Positions 591 to 46,994 of a DNA stretch of 64,000 bases are shown in pieces (the stretch's first letter is position 1; each line of letters begins with the position of its first letter). The notes under the pieces are model-generated. The model did no database searches and was not told the origin of the DNA. It saw only the letters and a list, made by a program, of their open reading frames with translations. Origin of the DNA: a virus. The position numbers and the translations under genes are program-made. The DNA is taken from IMG/VR virus record IMGVR_UViG_3300044641_007991, positions 1-64,000 of that record; one strand, 5' to 3'.

Positions 591-1910
591 TTTGCTAGAA
601 ATTATACTGATGCAGCTAATACTGCAATGAAAAATTATGTTGATGGTAAAACTAATTTTAATAATTCAATTTCATTCGGTAACGATGTAAATGTATCAGG
701 AAATCTTTATGTTCACGGTATTACAACTACATTTGATTCTACTAAATTAGTAATAAATGATAAAATTATTGAATTGGGTAATACTGCAGCCCCGACAGAC
801 TTAACAGCTGATGGTGGTGGATTACTCGTCAAAGGAACTACCGATAAAACATTTAATTGGTCAAATACAGCTGGTATTTCTAGTTGGGTAAGTTCTGAAA
901 ATTTAAATTTGGTTTCTGGTAAAACATATAAAATCGGTGGATCCGATGTTCTTTCTGCGACAACATTGAATTCCAGTGTAGTAAATTCTTCGCTTACTTC
1001 TGTTGGTAGGGTAACAAGTGGTATTTGGGTTTCTGCTATTGGTAATGTTACCGCAGCTAATTTGACGAATATTCCTTCTGCTAATTTAGCAGGAACTATT
1101 CCTTCTGTTGTTTTGGGGAATTCTTCTCATTATATTGGAACAACTGTAATAGCATTAAATCGTAGTTCTGGTAATTTGGGATTAACTGGAATTACTTCGG
1201 TTGCTCTTCCTGGTGCATCAAGCGGAACCATTACTTTACAACCTACAGCTGTTGCTGGTACAACAACATTAACATTACCTGCTAATACTGGTACATTAAT
1301 TTCTACTGGGGATACTGGTACTGTTACTTCAGCTATGTTATTGGACGGAACTATCGTTAATGCTGATATTAGTGCTACAGCTGCAATTTCTACCTCTAAA
1401 TTAGCTGCAAATACTATTTCTGGTATTGTATTAGGTTCTACATTAAATGCATTAGCTAATGGTTCAGGTTTGATCTGGAGTACCGGAACAAATTATACTG
1501 GTGCCGCAGCTGCAACATTAGGAATAGATAGTTCCGTAGTTACATTAACTGGATCTCAAACATTAACCAATAAAATTTTAACCGCTCCAACAATCACCGG
1601 CACAAAAGAAATTAAAGCAGCAATTGCTGCCTCTGACATCGATTGTGCAACTGGTAATTATTTTAGTAAAACCATTTCTGGTGTAACTACATTCACTGTG
1701 TCTAACGTTCCTTCTATCAACACTGCAATATCATTTGTATTGGATTTGACTAATGGTGGTTCATCTACTATTACTTGGTGGTCAGGTGTGAAATGGGCAT
1801 CCGGTATAGCACCAACGTTAACTGTTTCTGGTCGTGATGTATTGGGTTTCTTTACGCATGACGGTGGTACTACTTGGAGTGGGTTGGTTCTTGGTAAAGA
1901 CTTAAAATAA
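1..1910 (+). CDS. Tail fibre / virion structural protein, 5'-truncated by the window edge
   Basis: Frame of ORF 231..1910 is open back to base 3. N-terminal 33-aa repeats, T/S/G/A-rich body, C-terminal phage fibre motif (WWSGVKWASGIAPTLT...DVLGF..DGGTTW). Confidence 0.75.
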   Translation, partial: TSRTNAANTFLQANDGITLTAARNYTDLANSFNTSRTNAANTFLQANDGITLTAARNYTDLANSFNTSRTNAANTFLQANDGITLTAARAYTDLANSFNTSRLADANTFLQANDGITLTAARAYTDLANSFNTSRTNAANTFLQANDGITLTAARAYTDLANSFNTSRTNAANTFLQANDGITLTAARNYTDLANTFARNYTDAANTAMKNYVDGKTNFNNSISFGNDVNVSGNLYVHGITTTFDSTKLVINDKIIELGNTAAPTDLTADGGGLLVKGTTDKTFNWSNTAGISSWVSSENLNLVSGKTYKIGGSDVLSATTLNSSVVNSSLTSVGRVTSGIWVSAIGNVTAANLTNIPSANLAGTIPSVVLGNSSHYIGTTVIALNRSSGNLGLTGITSVALPGASSGTITLQPTAVAGTTTLTLPANTGTLISTGDTGTVTSAMLLDGTIVNADISATAAISTSKLAANTISGIVLGSTLNALANGSGLIWSTGTNYTGAAAATLGIDSSVVTLTGSQTLTNKILTAPTITGTKEIKAAIAASDIDCATGNYFSKTISGVTTFTVSNVPSINTAISFVLDLTNGGSSTITWWSGVKWASGIAPTLTVSGRDVLGFFTHDGGTTWSGLVLGKDLK

Positions 1911-21289: not shown

Positions 21290-21635
21290 GAAAACGGTTT
21301 ATTCTGTTTCGAGGAAAACCGCAAAAACCCAACTATAATTTTAAGCTGCTAGAGCAGTAGAATTATAGAAAGCGTCGTTTTTAGCTTCGCCATTTACTTA
21401 TTTTATGCTGATTACGTCAGTCATCTCTCGATTCTCCAGTGTTCTTTGATCTCAACGTCGAATCTGTTCACCCCCATCAGAAACACACTTAAACTGGTCC
21501 GGCAGAATTTTTTCATTCCAGTTCGTTTATGTGACCGTCGTCACTACTTAGCTGCGGCAAAAGTATGTTTCTGGTGGAGGTGGGGGAATAATGCTATCCC
21601 CGTCCGCCAAAACTATTATAACACCTTCAACGAAT
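21290..21635 (-). ncRNA. ssrA: Circularly permuted (two-piece) tmRNA
   Basis: On the minus strand the 3' acceptor CACCTCCACCA (ends 21572) precedes the 5' GGGGGTGAACAGATTCGAC (starts 21475); G3-U70 pair; tag frame 21391-21341 reads GEAKNDAFYNSTALAA*. Outer ends approximate. Confidence 0.88.
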
Positions 21636-21895
21636 ACTTTAAAATCACACTGCATAAGGACATAACGGACTCAAACCGAGTTCTTTGATACTATCTTACC
21701 TTATCGAACCTGAACACCTAGTGTGATTTTAAAAAGAGCAATACATTTAACAGAAAGAGTGAGTCGTACCAATCTGCCACCCAACAGAAACGTCAATATA
21801 ACGGCATTGTCACTTTATCTAATAGACAGGGATATTTCCGGTTATATCATACGTCCCGTTCTCGCGATGCCCGAGGGTAAATGTATTAAATTTAT

Positions 21896-26819: not shown

Positions 26820-26850
26820 AATTTTTTCCGTAGTATACAGTTATTGTACT

Positions 26851-27888
26851 CTATTGTGCGCTAGAAGTCAAGCACTTTTTTGATAATTGCTGTACAGCTA
26901 AATTCTTGGCTTTACTTTCGCACATCATGTCTGCCCAGCTAAGGTGCGATAATGCCCAATCGTTGACGGCAGTGTTCCAGTAGAAATCTGAATGCGCACG
27001 CAATTTACTTTTAGTATGACCTGCGGCTATAAGAGCTGCGAGATCTGGTAGAGTATGGGGACAATGATTGGCGAGAGTATCTTCTCGGCTAATAGAATAA
27101 TGAATAACAGGGCGAACGCCTCGCCAACTTTGAATAACCTGAGCAATCCTCGGGTCATCTGGCGAGATGTATTCTCCAGTTTTAATAAAATGATGGTGAA
27201 TATCCAGAACGACAGGAATCCTGTCAGAAATACTAAGACAAGCATCAAGTCCATGAGCGAACTCCTCATTTTCAATAGTTATACAATTTTTAGCGACATC
27301 GCTGAGTCGGTCGTAGGCAAGTAAAAAACCTGCTGGACCAAGTTTACCCGAGATATGTACATTGATTTTCATATCTTGAAACACACGACCATAACCCATC
27401 CAACGAGCCATATCTGCATGGTATTCGAACTCGGCTATGCTATTTTCTACTACATCTGGACGATCACTGGCTAACACGCAAAATTGACCAGGATGAAAAG
27501 ACAAGCGCACACCACGAGCACGAGCAACGGATCCGATAGAGTCAAAGCCTGTTTGTAATAATTCTTTAACATGTGGTTGCTGATAAAAATAACTATAATC
27601 AGCATGAGTGTATACTGGAAGAATATCGCTGGATAAACGTACCATCCTTAATTTGTCATCAAGTGTTCCTACTTTTTCGACTAATCTGCGAGCGGCTGTA
27701 ATATTTTGTTTGACCAAAGATAATAATTTAGCTTCAGCAGTTGATTTGATTTGACGGTTAAGCCAAGCAACGGTGGTGGTTCCGGTATTATATTTCTTGC
27801 AATCGTCAGTTGATTTAATACCATCAACTTGATCAGGGCGATCGATCCATTTACAAGCAAAACCTAGACGAGACATAACAAACTCCAT
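26851..27888 (-). CDS. uvsE: UV-damage endonuclease UvsE
   Basis: RLGFACK, RLSSD, RLSFHPGQF, ITIENEE, LDIHHH, RAHSD, ESKAKN. Confidence 0.92.
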   Translation of the reverse strand: MEFVMSRLGFACKWIDRPDQVDGIKSTDDCKKYNTGTTTVAWLNRQIKSTAEAKLLSLVKQNITAARRLVEKVGTLDDKLRMVRLSSDILPVYTHADYSYFYQQPHVKELLQTGFDSIGSVARARGVRLSFHPGQFCVLASDRPDVVENSIAEFEYHADMARWMGYGRVFQDMKINVHISGKLGPAGFLLAYDRLSDVAKNCITIENEEFAHGLDACLSISDRIPVVLDIHHHFIKTGEYISPDDPRIAQVIQSWRGVRPVIHYSISREDTLANHCPHTLPDLAALIAAGHTKSKLRAHSDFYWNTAVNDWALSHLSWADMMCESKAKNLAVQQLSKKCLTSSAQ

Positions 27889-31997: not shown

Positions 31998-32066
31998 TTC
32001 AAAATTCCTATCAAGTTAAGGTATAGAGTTATTGTACTCTAATTCAAGTCAAATGTCAAGCACTTT

Positions 32067-32303
32067 TTACAGATGCTTTAAAAATTGCATTTCTTGTTCT
32101 GTTGGGAAAAATTTATGGATAATTTCTACTCTAGGATCTGTTTGTTCAAAGGAATCTGTGGTGTAGATAGCATCAACACCACCTTCAAATAATGGATCTA
32201 ATCCACGCGAGAAAATACCATGAGTAACAAATAATCCAATTTTTCCTGCACCACGGTCTATTAACACTTTTGCCAATTCAGTGAAAGTAGCTCCGCCATC
32301 AGA
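32067..32303 (-). pseudogene. Displaced 3' fragment of the Prs-like gene
   Basis: Reads SDGGATFTELAKVLIDRGAGKIGLFVTHGIF...YTTDSFEQTDPRV, a diverged duplicate of the C-terminus of 33369..34211. Confidence 0.85.
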
Positions 32304-43255: not shown

Positions 43256-44128
43256 TTAGAAAACTATCCCATCACATACACCAATGACAAATAATCTCTT
43301 ACATCTAATCTTGCCTTCTTGTACTGCTATAATATCATCAACTGATACCTTACAAAATAATATCTTTTCACCAGACTTATTATTCCAATATTGAGCATTT
43401 GATACATGTAATCCATTGGCGCATGATTTAGTTTCATCTAAATCAACATCACCCACGGATACATAATCACCAATGACATATTTAAAATTGGCATCATGTA
43501 ATGAACTTAAATCTGCTCTGACATGTTTATAACAATAAATTTCGTTATTAAATGATTTTAATCCTGTTTGAGCCTCGATATTCTCTAATATATTATCTTT
43601 ATTAGTTAAATTATTGATTACCCTATTAAATGCTATATGCTGTTTTTGCGCTATTTTAGCATTGCCAGAGACACTTGCATTGCCAGAGACACTTGCATTG
43701 TCAGATACCCAAGCATTACCAGATACATGTGCATTGCCAGAGACACTTGCATTGTCAGAGACACTTGCATTGCCAGAGACACTTGCATTGTCAGATACCC
43801 AAGCATTACCAGATACATGTGCATTGCCAGAGACACTTGCATTGTCAGAGACACTTGCATTGCCAGAGACACTTGCATTGCCATAGACACTTGCATTGTC
43901 AGATACCCAAGCATTGCCATAGACCCTTGCATTGCCATAGACCCTTGCATTGCCATAGACCCAAGCATTGTCATCATGGTTTAAATTAGATTCGGTTTCA
44001 ACCCAGCCGCCAACATCACCAGCTTTTATATCGCCAAAATCTTTAAGTGCTTGAATTTGATATAAAGTTACGTTATTGACTTCGATAGTAGTTGTTAATT
44101 TGTATTTCATAATAAAATTCCTCATCAA
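43256..44128 (-). CDS. Hexapeptide-repeat (left-handed beta-helix-like) phage protein
   Basis: QIQALKDFGDIKAGDVGGW, about 17 NA(S/W/R/H)V(S/Y)(G/D) repeats, C-terminal CANGLH...GKIRC domain. Confidence 0.75.
   Translation of the reverse strand: MMRNFIMKYKLTTTIEVNNVTLYQIQALKDFGDIKAGDVGGWVETESNLNHDDNAWVYGNARVYGNARVYGNAWVSDNASVYGNASVSGNASVSDNASVSGNAHVSGNAWVSDNASVSGNASVSDNASVSGNAHVSGNAWVSDNASVSGNASVSGNAKIAQKQHIAFNRVINNLTNKDNILENIEAQTGLKSFNNEIYCYKHVRADLSSLHDANFKYVIGDYVSVGDVDLDETKSCANGLHVSNAQYWNNKSGEKILFCKVSVDDIIAVQEGKIRCKRLFVIGVCDGIVF
43660..43970 (-). repeat. 18-nt coding tandem repeat
   Basis: GCATTGCCAGAGACACTT-type units. Confidence 0.9.
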
Positions 44129-44145
44129 TTAAGTACAGTTATATT

Positions 44146-44712
44146 TTAACTGTTTTCTGATTGTAAGTCAAGCACTTTTTGCTGCTCTATAGCATCTCGT
44201 AAAATAGAATCTGTTAACTCATCAAGGGTAATCGCCTGTGCAGCAGCAATTTCTTCCAGAAGATCTAGAGATTTATCGGGCAAATTAACTGGAACCATGA
44301 TTCTAGTATCGTATTCTCTACCAGCATAGATATGTGTAATCTTCTCAACGATATCTTCTAAGATAACATCTGTATAGGTTTGATCATCAAATGCTACTGT
44401 AAAATCAAAACCGCGATTTGCGTTTTCCGCTATAACTGCATCTAATTTATTTTCAGCAATCCAGCGATAAAAATGCCCACGTTCGTAATCATATAATTCC
44501 AGAGAATATAATTCTTCAGTTTCTGTATCGAAAACACAAACAACATTCATGTTACTAGCGGGCGTATCTAGATCTAGGAATCTAACATTTGAACCAAAAC
44601 ATTCCCACTCATAAGGAGTAGATTCAATAATTTGGTATTTTGCTACTTTTAACAATTCATCAATTTTCATAAAATTCTGCAACCCCAATAATAATATTAA
44701 TACAACCACCAA
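44146..44712 (-). CDS. Hypothetical protein (start probably near 44670)
   Basis: Y.WECFG...YDTRI.VP. Confidence 0.6.
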   Translation of the reverse strand: MVVVLILLLGLQNFMKIDELLKVAKYQIIESTPYEWECFGSNVRFLDLDTPASNMNVVCVFDTETEELYSLELYDYERGHFYRWIAENKLDAVIAENANRGFDFTVAFDDQTYTDVILEDIVEKITHIYAGREYDTRIMVPVNLPDKSLDLLEEIAAAQAITLDELTDSILRDAIEQQKVLDLQSENS

Positions 44713-44883
44713 TCCAGTTTGAATAATATAAAAGTTTAAACACTACTGGATCATATCCATCTTTATTTTCGCGCATGTACTCACACGTCCATGCGTTTAA
44801 ACCTGCAATCAAAAAATTCATAATTTCACCTCAAGGTTATTATACCTTATTCCATGTTAGATGTCAAGCACTTTATCCCACAT

Positions 44884-44909
44884 AAAAAAAACCCGCCGAA
44901 GCGGGTTTC
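44884..44909 (-). terminator. Intrinsic terminator with UUCG loop
   Basis: Minus: AAACCCGC-TTCG-GCGGGTTTTTTTT. Confidence 0.9.
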
Positions 44910-45209
44910 ATATGTCCACTGGGGGAGGGGTTGCCCGCAAGTCCGGTGGCACGCAACAATAACAAATCAAAGAAAAGTCAGCAATTGACATGACAAAATA
45001 CAACAAACAGCCATATAATTGGATCAAAAGACAAACAACAAAAGCCCACATATACCCTGAGAACAAATGACAGGTTTAGCAATTAAGCGATACTCAGGAG
45101 CACGTCAGGCAAATAACTGTATCTGGTAGCAAGTTTCCACTCGCTTCCAAAAAAATTCGTCAATTCTGGTTCTTTTCTTTAATCTGGGAAGAGTTTTCTA
45201 ACCCTTGCC
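44910..45209 (-). ncRNA. Candidate ~300-nt non-coding RNA / long 3' UTR
   Basis: No ORF in the track between the stop of 45210..45776 and the terminator; UUGU-rich. Confidence 0.45.
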
Positions 45210-45776
45210 TTAAATAATTCCTTCCGATGTTAAGGTGGTTACATCACTATCGCTTAACTCAATCTCAGTTTTAAAGTTTAACTCTAAGATTTTATCCTGA
45301 AGTTTTTGTTTATCTTTTTTCAAATCTTTAATTGATTTGGTATAAAAGTCAATATCTACTTGAGATAAAATACCTGTTGTAACTTCAGTTTTTGAGTAAT
45401 ATGAATCTTTTACTGCGCTATTTTTAATTTTATTTAACTGACCATTAATAACAGTTAAATCCGCTTGTAGATGAGTTGGAGCAATAAATGCTGATAATAA
45501 ATTGATTTCTTTATCAAGCCAAGCTAATGTCGCTAAACAAGCATTAATATCAGAGGTTTCGTTAGCTGCTCCAACTTTAGTTCTAATTTCAACCAACGCT
45601 TCTAATAATGATAATTTACGAGAAACTCCAGTCATAAATGCGTCTTTGGCAGAGCGCAATACAGTTTCTGGATCTTGAAATTCATTAATATTAATCTGAG
45701 CTTTCGTCTCGATTGATTTTAATACTTCATTAATAGAAGTTTGAATAGCATTTGCTTTTCTTAGTGTAATTTTCAT
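45210..45776 (-). CDS. Helical coiled-coil protein (possibly DIP1984-like)
   Basis: MKITLRKANAIQ..I, AN...I, K.KLQD.ILELN..TEIEL; all-helical heptad pattern. Confidence 0.55.
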   Translation of the reverse strand: MKITLRKANAIQTSINEVLKSIETKAQININEFQDPETVLRSAKDAFMTGVSRKLSLLEALVEIRTKVGAANETSDINACLATLAWLDKEINLLSAFIAPTHLQADLTVINGQLNKIKNSAVKDSYYSKTEVTTGILSQVDIDFYTKSIKDLKKDKQKLQDKILELNFKTEIELSDSDVTTLTSEGII

Positions 45777-45804
45777 TTTAACCTCAACAATTTATAATAA
45801 AATT

Positions 45805-45880
45805 AGAATAATGCTGCCTGGGATTCGAACCCATATTTTCGTTAGTTTTCCGCACGATTTTCGCGTGGCAACATTATTCC
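45805..45880 (-). ncRNA. tRNA-like element (T-arm on a 14-bp closing stem)
   Basis: GGAATAATGTTGCC...TGGG-TTCGAAT-CCCA-GGCAGCATTATTCT; no canonical D or anticodon arm, no CCA. Confidence 0.55.
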
Positions 45881-45917
45881 AAATACACAGTTATTGTACT
45901 ATACTTAGGTAAAAAAG

Positions 45918-46238
45918 TCAAGCACTTTTTAAAAATTCTTCAGCAGCGACAATTCTAATCTCACCTTTACCTGCAGCAGAATCCTCGAATTGTTGATAAA
46001 TTTCGCTCATGTACATAGTCATGCCTTCATTTTCAGTAAAACCAACGTATTTGCTGCCGCTTTCATTAACAAAAGCATATCCACTTTCCCATGTATCGCT
46101 ATCAACAATTGCTGAACTTAATCTCCAGGAATCTCCTGAGGTAAATCCACCACGCCAACCAGCCAATATTTTATAGACACATTCTGCGGATGTTTTAATT
46201 TCTAGGATAACCCAGCGATCAGGAGTATAAGTGTTCAC
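45918..46238 (-). CDS. Conserved phage hypothetical protein
   Basis: YTPDRWV...YKILAGW.GG...GDSWRLSS. Confidence 0.65.
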   Translation of the reverse strand: MNTYTPDRWVILEIKTSAECVYKILAGWRGGFTSGDSWRLSSAIVDSDTWESGYAFVNESGSKYVGFTENEGMTMYMSEIYQQFEDSAAGKGEIRIVAAEEFLKSA

Positions 46239-46937: not shown

Positions 46938-46994
46938 AAATTCAAATTATACAACTATTGTACTATACAACAGGTAAAAAGTCAAGCACTTTGC

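Follow-up and report, generated by a model that had tools for sequence, protein, structure and literature searches.

A structured RNA with UG steps in a seven-nucleotide register, linked to the gene for a helical-bundle protein in jumbo phages

The approximately 300 non-coding nucleotides that follow the gene for a 188-aa helical protein in this viral DNA (the window, meaning the whole analysed stretch of 64,000 nucleotides) are part of a widespread, previously uncatalogued structured RNA family, here called the UG-step RNA. The coupling between this RNA and the protein gene is near-obligate and tighter than for almost any gene pair. The two products probably form a ribonucleoprotein, because the RNA always has the gene of this one 188-residue protein as its neighbour. 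The evidence tilts towards a unit that encodes, on one transcript, both components of a jumbo-phage ribonucleoprotein not described before, whose protein docks on the UG steps. The initial annotation had proposed a ribonucleoprotein of this kind with a tRNA mimic attached to it: of that proposal, a conserved, covarying RNA coupled to a protein family is upheld, contact between the two is a prediction, and the mimic as a conserved component had to be given up. The features of the unit are collected in Table 1.

Table 1. Features of the UG-step RNA unit in the window, in the direction of transcription
Feature	Position	Strand	Remarks
Sigma-70-type promoter, TTGACT-17 nt-TACAAT	45893..45921	−	10/12 consensus matches
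5′ leader fold, tRNA-like	45803..45882	−	MFE −30.1 kcal/mol, z = −4.35
T-arm UGGG-UUCGAAU-CCCA in leader	45819..45833	−	
188-aa helical-bundle protein gene	45210..45776	−	phrog_25230
UG-step RNA core	44957..45209	−	nhmmer profile match 45199–44957, E = 1e-24
Closing helix, 5′ strand (P2a, P2b)	45159..45181	−	pairs with 44970–44989
P5 hairpin	45044..45101	−	loop with two UG steps (UG at 45072, 45065)
UG-step track, single-stranded: UUGY motifs in 7-nt register	44990..45041	−	
Closing helix, 3′ strand	44970..44989	−	
Lineage-specific 3′ extension, weak hairpin	44910..44956	−	missing from family alignment
Intrinsic terminator	44880..44909	−	9-bp stem, UUCG loop, U-tract

Architecture of the UG-step RNA

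The profile of the UG-step RNA has a single match within the window, in the non-coding stretch of about 300 nt that the initial annotation had singled out and that is indeed present at 45209–44884 (fold z = −3.4). Members of the family are ∼250–270 nt long and are characterized by a 5′ hairpin (P1), a long closing helix of ∼20 bp, three internal hairpins and single-stranded UG tracks. The consensus folds into a closed, multi-branched structure that has neither a rod-and-bubble nor an acceptor end. In an alignment of 28 sequences, 35 of the 51 consensus pairs show two-sided compensatory change and 94.2% of cells are paired, as against 30–45% when the partners are slid; none of 500 shuffles matches any of these measures. 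The closing helix (columns 50–74 with 301–321) is paired in 95–98% of cells and includes 11 pairs with two-sided changes. A search of homologues for conservation and covariation of the downstream ∼300 nt, the check suggested at the outset, has therefore come out in favour of a conserved RNA.

The defining hallmark of the family is a set of eight near-invariant UG steps, mostly UUGY, at an exact spacing of 7 nt and in blocks of 2, 4 and 2. The steps lie in regions predicted to be single-stranded and the bases between them are variable. Across the family, a UG-to-UG distance of 7 nt is counted 150 times, compared with ∼25 for other distances. The two steps in the P5 loop (columns 201–202 and 208–209) are invariant in 27–28 of the 28 sequences, and UG is likewise invariant at columns 233/240/247/254 and 288/295. 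The window sequence passes the criteria of the family: it matches the profile, has the closing helix and P5, and keeps seven of the eight aligned UG steps in register, its track consisting of two blocks with a short variable hairpin between them. The repeated U/G motifs seen in the single sequence are real and ordered. The related ends described alongside them are not conserved: the 5′ one is the P1 hairpin and the 3′ one lies in a variable, lineage-specific extension, with three changes in 96%-identical relatives. The 7-nt register is the pattern to be expected if a repeated or oligomeric ligand bound along the track.

It is barely credible that the U/G-rich stretch is a gene for a small hydrophobic peptide (ORF 45066–44908, 52 aa; 47 aa from an internal ATG). 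The frame is open, its content is hydrophobic and a weak AGGG precedes the internal ATG, but the conservation has a period of 7 nt and not 3 nt, the helices covary and the peptide has no PHROG match. Over the 28 family members the longest ORF varies in start, frame and length (21 to 80 aa), and the coding reading was rejected for want of a consistent ORF.

No family among the 4227 models of Rfam 15 matches the RNA, even at E ≤ 10. A scan of 44700–46000 at this cut-off returned chance-level matches on the terminator alone, and a canonical family member (L058:1960–2290) returned none. Gathering scans of the window and ten loci recovered only tRNA, tmRNA and GOLLD, all outside the RNA region. Identity with tmRNA, RNase P RNA or 6S RNA was rejected, as there is no covariance-model match and the architecture differs. 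In the full-text literature searched, including a comparative review of jumbo phages (PMC7824862), the RNA, the protein and a phage omega are all unmentioned; preprints from 2026 that were examined proved unrelated.

Signs of expression and constraint fall on the same segment. In metatranscriptomes (three runs from two studies) the sole contigs matching the 1.4-kb region at at least 99% are 164–220 nt long and lie inside the RNA; they span 44979–45203, end at the RNA borders and do not enter the ORF. Low in depth, these contigs are a weak hint that the RNA is present alone, and the lack of a contig on the ORF, the leader and the 3′ extension is not taken as evidence of absence. In close relatives the RNA core has accumulated one substitution over 245 nt, compared with 17 over 567 nt in the ORF.

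Linkage and distribution of the pair

Homologues devoid of similar flanking non-coding regions had been named as the observation that would speak against the ribonucleoprotein. The loci do not bear this out: of 80 viral loci with a homologue, 75 have the RNA near the protein gene at threshold, on the same strand and 4–470 nt away; four of the five misses have divergent, weaker copies and the fifth locus is cut off. The reverse search, starting from the RNA motif, found the gene in 75 of 81 cases, the remaining six being cut by the locus edge. No locus was found that holds one partner with space for the other and yet is without it. The RNA is located either upstream or downstream of the gene, depending on the clade, and in some loci omega, a 139-aa ORF, a tRNA or a promoter stands between the two. 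The adjacency persists through this repeated rearrangement, across proteins that are ∼40% identical and genomes of 31–60% GC.

The protein family is large: 525 homologues have full-length coverage, and 1652 clusters at 50% identity (E ≤ 1e-3) are recognized, with matches in 412 viral loci. Among prokaryote genomes of 185,579 species there are three matches, every one on MAG contigs, and we read the family as viral. The 1.4-kb region itself matched nothing by blastn in 50,697 phage records. Cultured phages of Caulobacter (CcrColossus, CcrPW) and Brevundimonas (Bambus and Gurke among those that infect this host) carry the pair. In GC-rich cultured phages an unannotated gap of 285–315 nt follows the homologous gene, coming after gp272 in CcrColossus and gp279 in CcrPW, and displays the same architecture, with a covarying closing helix; the nhmmer profile finds no match in them. 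Inspection by eye and an alignment made separately both show the architecture clearly, and sequence profiles therefore under-count the family.

Most loci are situated inside the tRNA arrays of jumbo phages, frequently with a homologue of the RNA polymerase omega subunit. The largest clade shows translational coupling of the protein gene to the omega homologue, has the RNA between the promoter and the omega-protein operon, and carries an initiator-like tRNA (C1xA72, A73) at the flank of the pair. In nine loci only 0–1 nt separates the 3′ end of a tRNA from the 5′ end of the RNA, and in several clades a U-run follows the closing helix. A search for the omega homologue (PF01192) in the 74-kb record to which the window belongs, ∼29% of the genome, did not find one.

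This arrangement invites the question of whether the RNA acts in cis, as an untranslated part of the mRNA for the protein and not as a free-standing RNA gene, serving as an autoregulatory operator and/or as a nuclease-resistant cap for an mRNA amid heavily processed tRNA precursors. The RNA is always co-oriented with the gene and apparently co-transcribed, its position ahead of the omega-protein operon in the largest clade suits a leader, and the U-runs are attenuator-like. We nevertheless judge this reading quite unlikely: clades differ in whether the RNA precedes or follows the gene, and in some loci a promoter, a tRNA or another ORF comes between the two. Moreover, a protective hairpin would need far less than the five covarying helices of this RNA and its eight invariant UG steps in single strands, and the RNA-library contigs stop short of the ORF.

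The transcription unit and its tRNA-like leader

Promoter and UUCG terminator were both located where the initial annotation had placed them, and the unit is self-contained, as it had claimed, because the terminator, called at 44909–44888, is followed by the next promoter (44867–44839, 12/12 matches). The promoter at 45921–45893 is the driver of the whole unit. Its context is repeated at four further places in the record, and close relatives show one substitution in its spacer. Tandem repeats were sought within 44880–45930 and none was found.

At the 5′ end of the transcript the tRNA-like fold with a perfect T-arm is likewise present. A stem of ∼16 bp closes a junction that contains a small hairpin and the consensus T-arm; none of 200 shuffles folds equally well. 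The T-arm adjoins the 3′ strand of the long stem in both the MFE and the centroid folds, and the leader displays the tRNA trait of a consensus T-arm (GGTTCGAATCC loop and stem) stacked on a terminal stem. The exact GGTTCGAATCC occurs at 45831–45821 as a single copy in 64 kb, where the chance expectation with one mismatch is 0.57. These two elements, the T-arm and an acceptor-like stem, are the only tRNA features of the leader. A genuine tRNA is ruled out, as there is no anticodon arm and no free 3′ CCA and the stem extends to ∼16 bp; ARAGORN called no tRNA in the window or in the other 10 kb of the record, and the Rfam tRNA model does not match the leader even at E ≤ 10. The absence of an anticodon arm also makes the proposed role as a decoy for anticodon nucleases unlikely.

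The leader is specific to this lineage, that is to the phage and its near-identical relatives, and not a conserved component of the unit as first supposed. A search of 80 other loci found no such element ahead of the protein gene; genuine tRNAs lie near the gene in related loci, where the window has the leader. It is conceivable, if doubtful, that the leader is the decaying, functionless remnant of an Asp or Met tRNA gene, its source being the tRNA gene that related phages have 20–70 nt ahead of the gene for the protein. A tRNA-Met and/or a tRNA-Asp directly precedes the gene in related loci with the gene-then-RNA order, the leader has kept only the T-arm and the acceptor-like stem, and it has no counterpart at this place in the other loci. 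Decay is difficult to reconcile with the pattern of substitution: over 77 nt the leader is free of changes in two relatives and a third contig in which the ORF differs at 2–3% of sites, although ∼3.8 substitutions would be expected. The stability of the fold, given by its z-score, also argues against a remnant, as does the lengthened stem at the extreme 5′ end of the transcript, a position in which stems are known to protect mRNAs. A role in 5′ processing or stabilisation is possible.

The helical-bundle protein and the candidate ribonucleoprotein

The ORF encodes the 188-aa helical protein that had been predicted, a member of phrog_25230 by a full-length profile match (E = 2.5e-6, residues 1–177). 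AlphaFold2 models it as a helical bundle with a mean pLDDT of 92.8. Oligomer structure prediction, another of the checks suggested initially, yields a homodimer: the ipSAE of the model is 0.61, against 0.00 for the best control, a mark passed by 20 of 30 proteins solved as one-chain pairs and by one of 23 solved as single chains. The runs show at least 93% contact agreement and a partner pLDDT of at least 89. The 188-aa protein is thus predicted to form a homodimer, the invariant NEFQ loop making up the interface together with the strand that contains V132/T134. With a pI put at 5.0–7.9, or more narrowly at ∼5–6.7, the protein ranges from acidic to near-neutral and is not basic; 14 K/R columns are conserved in the family. 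An acidic pI is unusual for RNA-binding proteins, except that base readers of the TRAP and HutP type are likewise not strongly basic.

Structure searches returned no RNA-binding fold of known type among their matches. Among solved structures the uncharacterised protein 3kdq matches best, at Z 10.4, a score range in which helical bundles may match trivially; the remaining matches are generic coiled coils and BAR domains. Structural look-alikes occur in giant viruses rich in translation genes, and the neighbours in the ESM Atlas are unnamed viral clusters. By sequence, Pfam, PADLOC and the PDB gave sub-threshold or chance matches (RecA, CARF and Cas13a fragments). Membership of the Pfam family DUF6847 (PF20935) was rejected, the score of 17.2 bits being below the 27-bit gathering cut-off (E = 0.005, C-terminal half). 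DUF6847 is found in 19% of the members of a cluster neighbouring the protein in feature space, and a distant relationship short of membership is possible. A type III toxin–antitoxin system (ToxI-like, with ∼34–36 nt repeats) was discarded, there being no tandem repeat and only chance-level PADLOC matches for the protein.

In the proposed ribonucleoprotein, the helices would hold together a scaffold that displays the eight UG steps, 7 nt apart. Copies of the dimeric protein would dock base-specifically on these steps, one site every 7 nt, in a manner modelled on the ring proteins HutP and TRAP that read spaced triplets, and a defined, stable particle would be the outcome. In most relatives, where the pair is embedded in tRNA operons, the 5′ end of the RNA would be freed by the cleavage that matures the 3′ end of the upstream tRNA. 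In the phage described here, the pair instead has its own sigma-70-type promoter and terminator, the tRNA-like leader standing in the place of the tRNA of the relatives and probably acting as a processing or stabilising 5′ structure. In the cell, the particle would probably act on host translation, on RNA metabolism or on RNA polymerase, given that the pair sits in tRNA islands and is often coupled to an omega homologue.

Direct binding of the protein through the UG steps is inferred, and the conserved adjacency could reflect co-regulation instead of contact. The RNA might function without the 188-aa protein, as a stable RNA-only particle or as a sponge whose UG steps are offered to some factor of the host, for example a nuclease, an RNA chaperone or a component of the machinery of initiation; the neighbouring gene would then be merely co-regulated, or would act in the same pathway without contact. 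The tRNA islands that harbour the pair also contain GOLLD, which is reported to assemble free of protein (PMC12286853). The protein is not basic and the RNA-library contigs cover the RNA by itself; furthermore, omega or RNA polymerase could be the protein's physical partner, given the coupling in the largest clade. A dispensable protein is hard to square with an adjacency that has survived repeated rearrangement and wide divergence, and with the lack of any locus that has one partner and room for the missing other. An RNA acting on its own is accordingly viewed as unlikely, and the ribonucleoprotein remains the preferred reading.

The likeness to HutP–hut mRNA and to the TRAP–trp leader is one of form alone: a short invariant motif recurs at a fixed spacing along single-stranded RNA, and the spacers vary. 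The motif is UAG every 7 nt for HutP and (G/U)AG every 5–6 nt for TRAP; the UG-step RNA offers UG/UUGY every 7 nt in place of these triplets, without homology. The RNAs bound by HutP and TRAP are mRNA leaders that control attenuation, whereas the UG-step RNA is a multi-helix structure of ∼270 nt on either side of its gene. The HutP and TRAP proteins are alpha/beta or beta-sandwich rings, in contrast to the predicted all-helical dimer, and neither fold is among the matches listed in the structure searches. As a side observation, the UG steps can be read as start-codon-like triplets (UUG, GUG, CUG), which fits a translation-initiation reading; the initiator-like tRNA, the omega coupling and the giant-virus look-alikes likewise fit a reading in terms of initiation or RNA polymerase.

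Species 1 and 2 of phage T4 (rnaC and rnaD), small stable RNAs of unknown function that are cut from a tRNA precursor, resemble the UG-step RNA in their place within a phage tRNA cluster, immediately behind a tRNA: rnaD begins 1 nt past tRNA-Arg. In addition, rnaC has a GGGUUCGAAUCCC T-arm, like the leader in the window. At 119 and 139 nt and without UG steps, the two T4 RNAs show no likeness of sequence or architecture to the UG-step RNA. No homologue of the 188-aa protein was found in T4 by tblastn, and e.5/e.6 were rejected as candidates (hhalign probability <1%).

GOLLD and ROOL are, like the UG-step RNA, structured, of unknown function and located beside tRNAs in phages and prophages; three of the ten related loci scanned have GOLLD no more than a few kb from the pair. 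We know of no protein gene obligately linked to either. They are different families, with no Rfam match to connect them to the UG-step RNA, and are two to three times larger. Both assemble as RNA-only cages (PMC12286853). With tmRNA–SmpB and RNase P the pair shares a concept, a stable RNA and one dedicated protein in tRNA or translation biology, and phages of this group also encode tmRNA. The UG-step RNA differs from tmRNA in having no tRNA-like acceptor end, and the protein has no relation in fold to SmpB or RnpA. A possible RNA polymerase link, through the omega encoded between the RNA and the protein gene in many loci, is shared with 6S RNA; this last forms one rod, ∼185 nt long and opened by a central bubble, unlike the multi-branched UG-step RNA, and the link has no omega to rest on in the window's own record.

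To our knowledge, only a handful of stable structured RNAs have a protein dedicated to them, namely RNase P, tmRNA–SmpB, SRP, Ro–Y RNA and OLE, each of which opened a field. The tRNA islands of large phages keep translation going despite attack by the host. The most far-reaching interpretation, an improbable one at present, is that the pair represents a new class of virus-encoded stable ribonucleoprotein in which several protein copies occupy eight NUG steps and act on host translation initiation or RNA polymerase control. The protein family is abundant, in clusters and viral loci alike, the RNA is missing from Rfam 15, and the exact 7-nt UG register constitutes an unusual and testable recognition code. 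As cultured Caulobacter and Brevundimonas jumbo phages carry the pair, the system is directly accessible to experiment, and it bears on the old question, raised by species 1 and 2 of T4, of the role of stable RNAs other than tRNAs in phage tRNA clusters.

Layout and constraint of the transcription unit

The 188-aa gene (phrog_25230 family) lies in a minus-strand unit with its own promoter, a UUCG-loop terminator and a separate promoter for the next gene, so that the self-contained unit proposed in the initial annotation stands (table). The source record measures 74 kb, of which the window is the first 64 kb, and is ~29% complete by CheckV, which implies a phage of jumbo size. GC content is ~34% and the phage is found repeatedly in lake-water metagenomes. 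Four further sites, all on the minus strand, share the unit's promoter context (AAAAAGTGCTTGAC...), which suggests a common class of sigma-70-type promoters. A 290-aa protein encoded in the window consists mostly of GNA[S/W/H]VS repeats of the YdcK/bactofilin beta-solenoid type, and its C-terminal part matches RIIB-annotated PHROGs; its repetitive DNA generates spurious ORFs in every frame.

Features of the unit, the window and related viral loci (L-numbered, from the set of 80 protein-homologue loci)
Feature	Position	Strand	Details
Promoter TTGACT-17-TACAAT	45921-45893	-	10/12 matches
tRNA-like leader fold, 80 nt	45882-45803	-	-30.1 kcal/mol, z = -4.35
ORF, 188-aa protein	45776-45210	-	ORF reading
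Non-coding stretch, ~325 nt	3′ of ORF, terminator included	-	without conserved frame
Terminator, 9-bp stem + UUCG loop	44909-44888	-	ends non-coding stretch
Promoter of next gene	44867-44839	-	perfect match
Other copies of promoter context	46940-46992, 32027-32068, 26834-26880; record 65290-65342	-	
290-aa beta-solenoid protein	43256-44128	-	
Permuted (two-piece) tmRNA gene	21293-21683	-	RF04321 85.5 bits, alpha_tmRNA 65.2 bits
Omega homologue	L058:2272-2520, L012:2289-2504, many other largest-clade loci		PF01192 Rpb6
Initiator-like tRNA(CAU)	L058:3288-3363, L024:3371-3446, L060:3431-3504 and others		C1xA72, A73
GOLLD RNA	L023:4699-5165, L038:1247-1711, L052:813-1276		208-214 bits
Permuted tmRNA, beta-type	L049:4069-4427		
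~120-nt element	L013:~2320-2440, L010:~960-1090		between tRNA-Met and 188-aa gene
First uncalled T-arm element	L027:~3383, L048:~1692, L061:~3380, L068:~2665		conserved across loci
Second uncalled T-arm element	L052:~360, L053:~572, L060:~1192, L078:~201		conserved across loci

Compared with the window, two metagenome relatives whose proteins are 96% identical show 17 changes in 567 ORF positions, 1 in ~245 of the RNA core, 0 in 77 of the leader and three in ~75 nt of the 3′ extension; the leader is likewise unchanged in a third relative's contig. Metatranscriptomes (three runs, two studies), searched with 1.4 kb, yielded only whole contigs, 220, 191 and 164 nt long and ≥99% identical. These all fall within the RNA (44979-45203), and none on the ORF or leader. 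As such contigs are unable to prove ends or levels, they point only weakly to an abundant, discrete RNA.

The UG-step RNA and its linkage to the protein gene

The non-coding stretch of the window belongs to a large family of RNAs, here called the UG-step RNA. Used as a single-sequence nhmmer query against the fetched protein-homologue loci, it matches 34 of 80, on the gene's strand, and the matches have a plainly common architecture. Structural alignment of 28 of these sequences, the window copy included, yields a consensus structure with seven helices and 51 pairs, 35 of which show two-sided compensatory changes. Standard pairs occupy 94.2% of cells, against 30–45% when partners are slid by 1–3 columns, and on each of five measures all 500 column shuffles fall short of what is observed. 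The RNA comprises a 5′ hairpin (P1), a bipartite closing helix of ~20 bp that joins distant strands, a pair of small hairpins, the larger P5 hairpin with its conserved loop, and a 3′ single-stranded tract broken by a variable hairpin. Neither the window copy nor a canonical one matches a family in Rfam 15, with the threshold relaxed to E ≤ 10.

At columns 201/208, 233/240/247/254 and 288/295, which lie in the P5 loop and the 3′ tract, UG is invariant in 27–28 of the 28 sequences; the bases between these steps vary. The step usually takes the form UUGY, and the window copy retains seven of the eight aligned steps. Family-wide, two UG dinucleotides lie 7 nt apart in 150 cases and 14 nt apart in 70, against ~25 for other distances. 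A peptide gene is a rival reading of this U/G-rich stretch, and the window contains a hydrophobic 52-aa ORF. Because the register of the steps is 7 nt, not 3 nt, and the longest ORF differs in start, frame and length among family members, this ORF is rejected as a gene and put down to the richness in U and G.

A word-indexed search gives 525 full-length homologues of the protein, and an exhaustive one 1652 clusters at 50% identity. Among prokaryote genomes the protein occurs on three MAG contigs only, across 185,579 species, and the family therefore appears viral. Linkage was assessed in 80 of the 412 viral loci matched by the protein. The alignment profile, which matches the window exactly once (45199-44957), detects the RNA in 75 of these 80, always on the gene's strand and 4–470 nt away. 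Of the five misses, one locus stops 244 nt past the gene and the other four carry divergent copies directly upstream, seen by eye and, in three cases, as sub-threshold matches. Conversely, a 20-nt degenerate RNA motif run against viral contigs returned >120 stretches: the gene lies on the same strand for 75 of the 81 matches in fetched loci, and for the remaining six the DNA towards the gene runs for <540 nt.

This association persists across several gene orders: RNA-omega-gene in the largest clade, RNA-gene, gene-RNA in the window's clade, gene-tRNA-Met-RNA and gene-139-aa ORF-RNA. To our knowledge, few gene-RNA pairs stay together so consistently through rearrangement. Functional coupling of RNA and protein gene is taken here as established, and physical association of the two products would be the most economical reading. 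Two rivals are less likely: that the RNA is a cis-acting UTR or operator, which its constant co-orientation with the gene favours and the variety of gene orders speaks against; and that it acts alone or as a sponge, which the constant company of the gene speaks against.

Cultured phages harbour the pair too. Homologues were found by tblastn in seven Brevundimonas and two Caulobacter jumbo phages, and a BFVD structure search places the fold in Caulobacter phage CcrColossus, Erwinia phage pEa_SNUABM_47 and Vibrio phage Vp_R1. All five cultured-phage records examined have an unannotated gap of 285–315 nt 3′ of the gene. These GC-rich gaps, undetected by the AT-rich sequence profile, are mutually alignable: they share a 5′ hairpin and a closing helix with compensatory changes, in which GGGUGGGAGCGAGG, GGGUGGAAGCGG and GGGGCGGGGACGG each pair with their own complement, and a run of UUGY or UGC steps, one per 7 nt.

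tRNA islands and the tRNA-like leader

All 582 tRNA genes across the 80 loci are co-oriented with the pair. In nine loci the RNA starts 0–1 nt past a tRNA's CCA, so that its 5′ end must arise from the cut maturing that tRNA. A tRNA(CAU) is among the nearest neighbours of the pair in 46 of 59 distinct tRNA-bearing loci, CAU accounting for 15% of tRNAs. In the largest clade this tRNA (CGCGGG...CCCGCAACCA), which lies close downstream of the pair, displays the bacterial-initiator hallmarks of a C1xA72 mismatch and A73; the three G-C pairs found in an initiator's anticodon stem are missing. In this clade, the small ORF that separates RNA from gene encodes an RNA polymerase omega/Rpb6 homologue (PF01192, E = 7e-12), whose stop usually overlaps the start of the 188-aa gene by 4–20 nt. 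No omega was found in the window's partial record, nor any paper on a phage omega in the literature.

Other RNAs also occur in these islands. An Rfam scan of ten related loci finds GOLLD nearby in three, each copy with an embedded tRNA-like match, and tmRNA in one. Two further conserved T-arm elements, uncalled as tRNAs, may be more tRNA-like stable RNAs; one lies ~300 nt 3′ of the 188-aa gene, immediately ahead of tRNA-Met. The conserved ~120-nt element of two loci (GAGUAGUAUG ... GACCACCG ... GUGCUACUUA) looks, from its sequence, like another structured RNA. ARAGORN finds no tRNA genes in the 74 kb of the window's own record, despite its tmRNA.

In the leader, a long stem closes a junction from which a small hairpin and a fully canonical T-arm project; GGTTCGAATCC has a single exact occurrence in the 64-kb window. 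ARAGORN and the Rfam tRNA model both refuse it as a tRNA: it has neither anticodon arm nor free CCA end. The missing anticodon arm speaks against the suggestion, made initially, that this tRNA mimic is a decoy for anticodon nucleases. All other loci examined lack a T-arm element immediately ahead of the 188-aa gene; in relatives within the window's clade, tRNA-Met and/or tRNA-Asp end 20–70 nt ahead of the start codon. Most simply, the leader is a descendant of, or stand-in for, that upstream tRNA, retained as the transcript's structured 5′ terminus and possibly as a signal for RNase P or RNase E. The nearest precedent is T4 rnaC, a stable RNA at the end of a tRNA cluster with an identical T-arm sequence.

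The protein and a proposed particle

Known sequences offer no match to the 188-aa protein in Pfam, PHROGs of known function, PADLOC, PDB or ESM Atlas. Searches turned up neither an Rfam family nor a named homologue, and Pfam matches stayed below threshold; full-text literature searches and a dedicated jumbo-phage review gave no paper on RNA or protein. AlphaFold2 models a confident helical bundle (pLDDT 92.8) whose two termini join in a small sheet. The best solved structure, the uncharacterised 3kdq (Foldseek E = 6e-3; VIA Z 10.4 over 143 residues, rmsd 6.4), is a match that is not decisive for a helical bundle. Weaker BFVD matches by Foldseek occur in giant viruses, A0A1V0SA40 (Catovirus CTV1, E = 1.6e-6) and A0A5K0UAD2 (Yasminevirus, E = 3.6e-5), structural look-alikes at TM 0.6–0.7 from viruses hosting many translation genes.

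Prediction with two copies gives ipSAE of 0.61, 0.60 and 0.61 in three runs, against 0.00 for the best control, with at least 93% of contacts in common and partner pLDDT of at least 89. This mark is attained by 20 of 30 proteins solved as same-chain pairs and 1 of 23 solved as single chains, counts that are only rough here as our own alignment served as input. The models support a symmetric homodimer, with a predicted interface that sets a loop carrying an invariant NEFQ motif against a strand with invariant V132/T134. K/R is conserved in fourteen columns, but the protein's overall charge is close to neutral.

We propose the following scheme. One early transcript yields both the mRNA and the RNA, whose helices display eight UG steps, 7 nt apart. 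By inference, protein dimers would read these steps base-specifically, forming a stable particle that may act on host translation, RNA metabolism or RNA polymerase.
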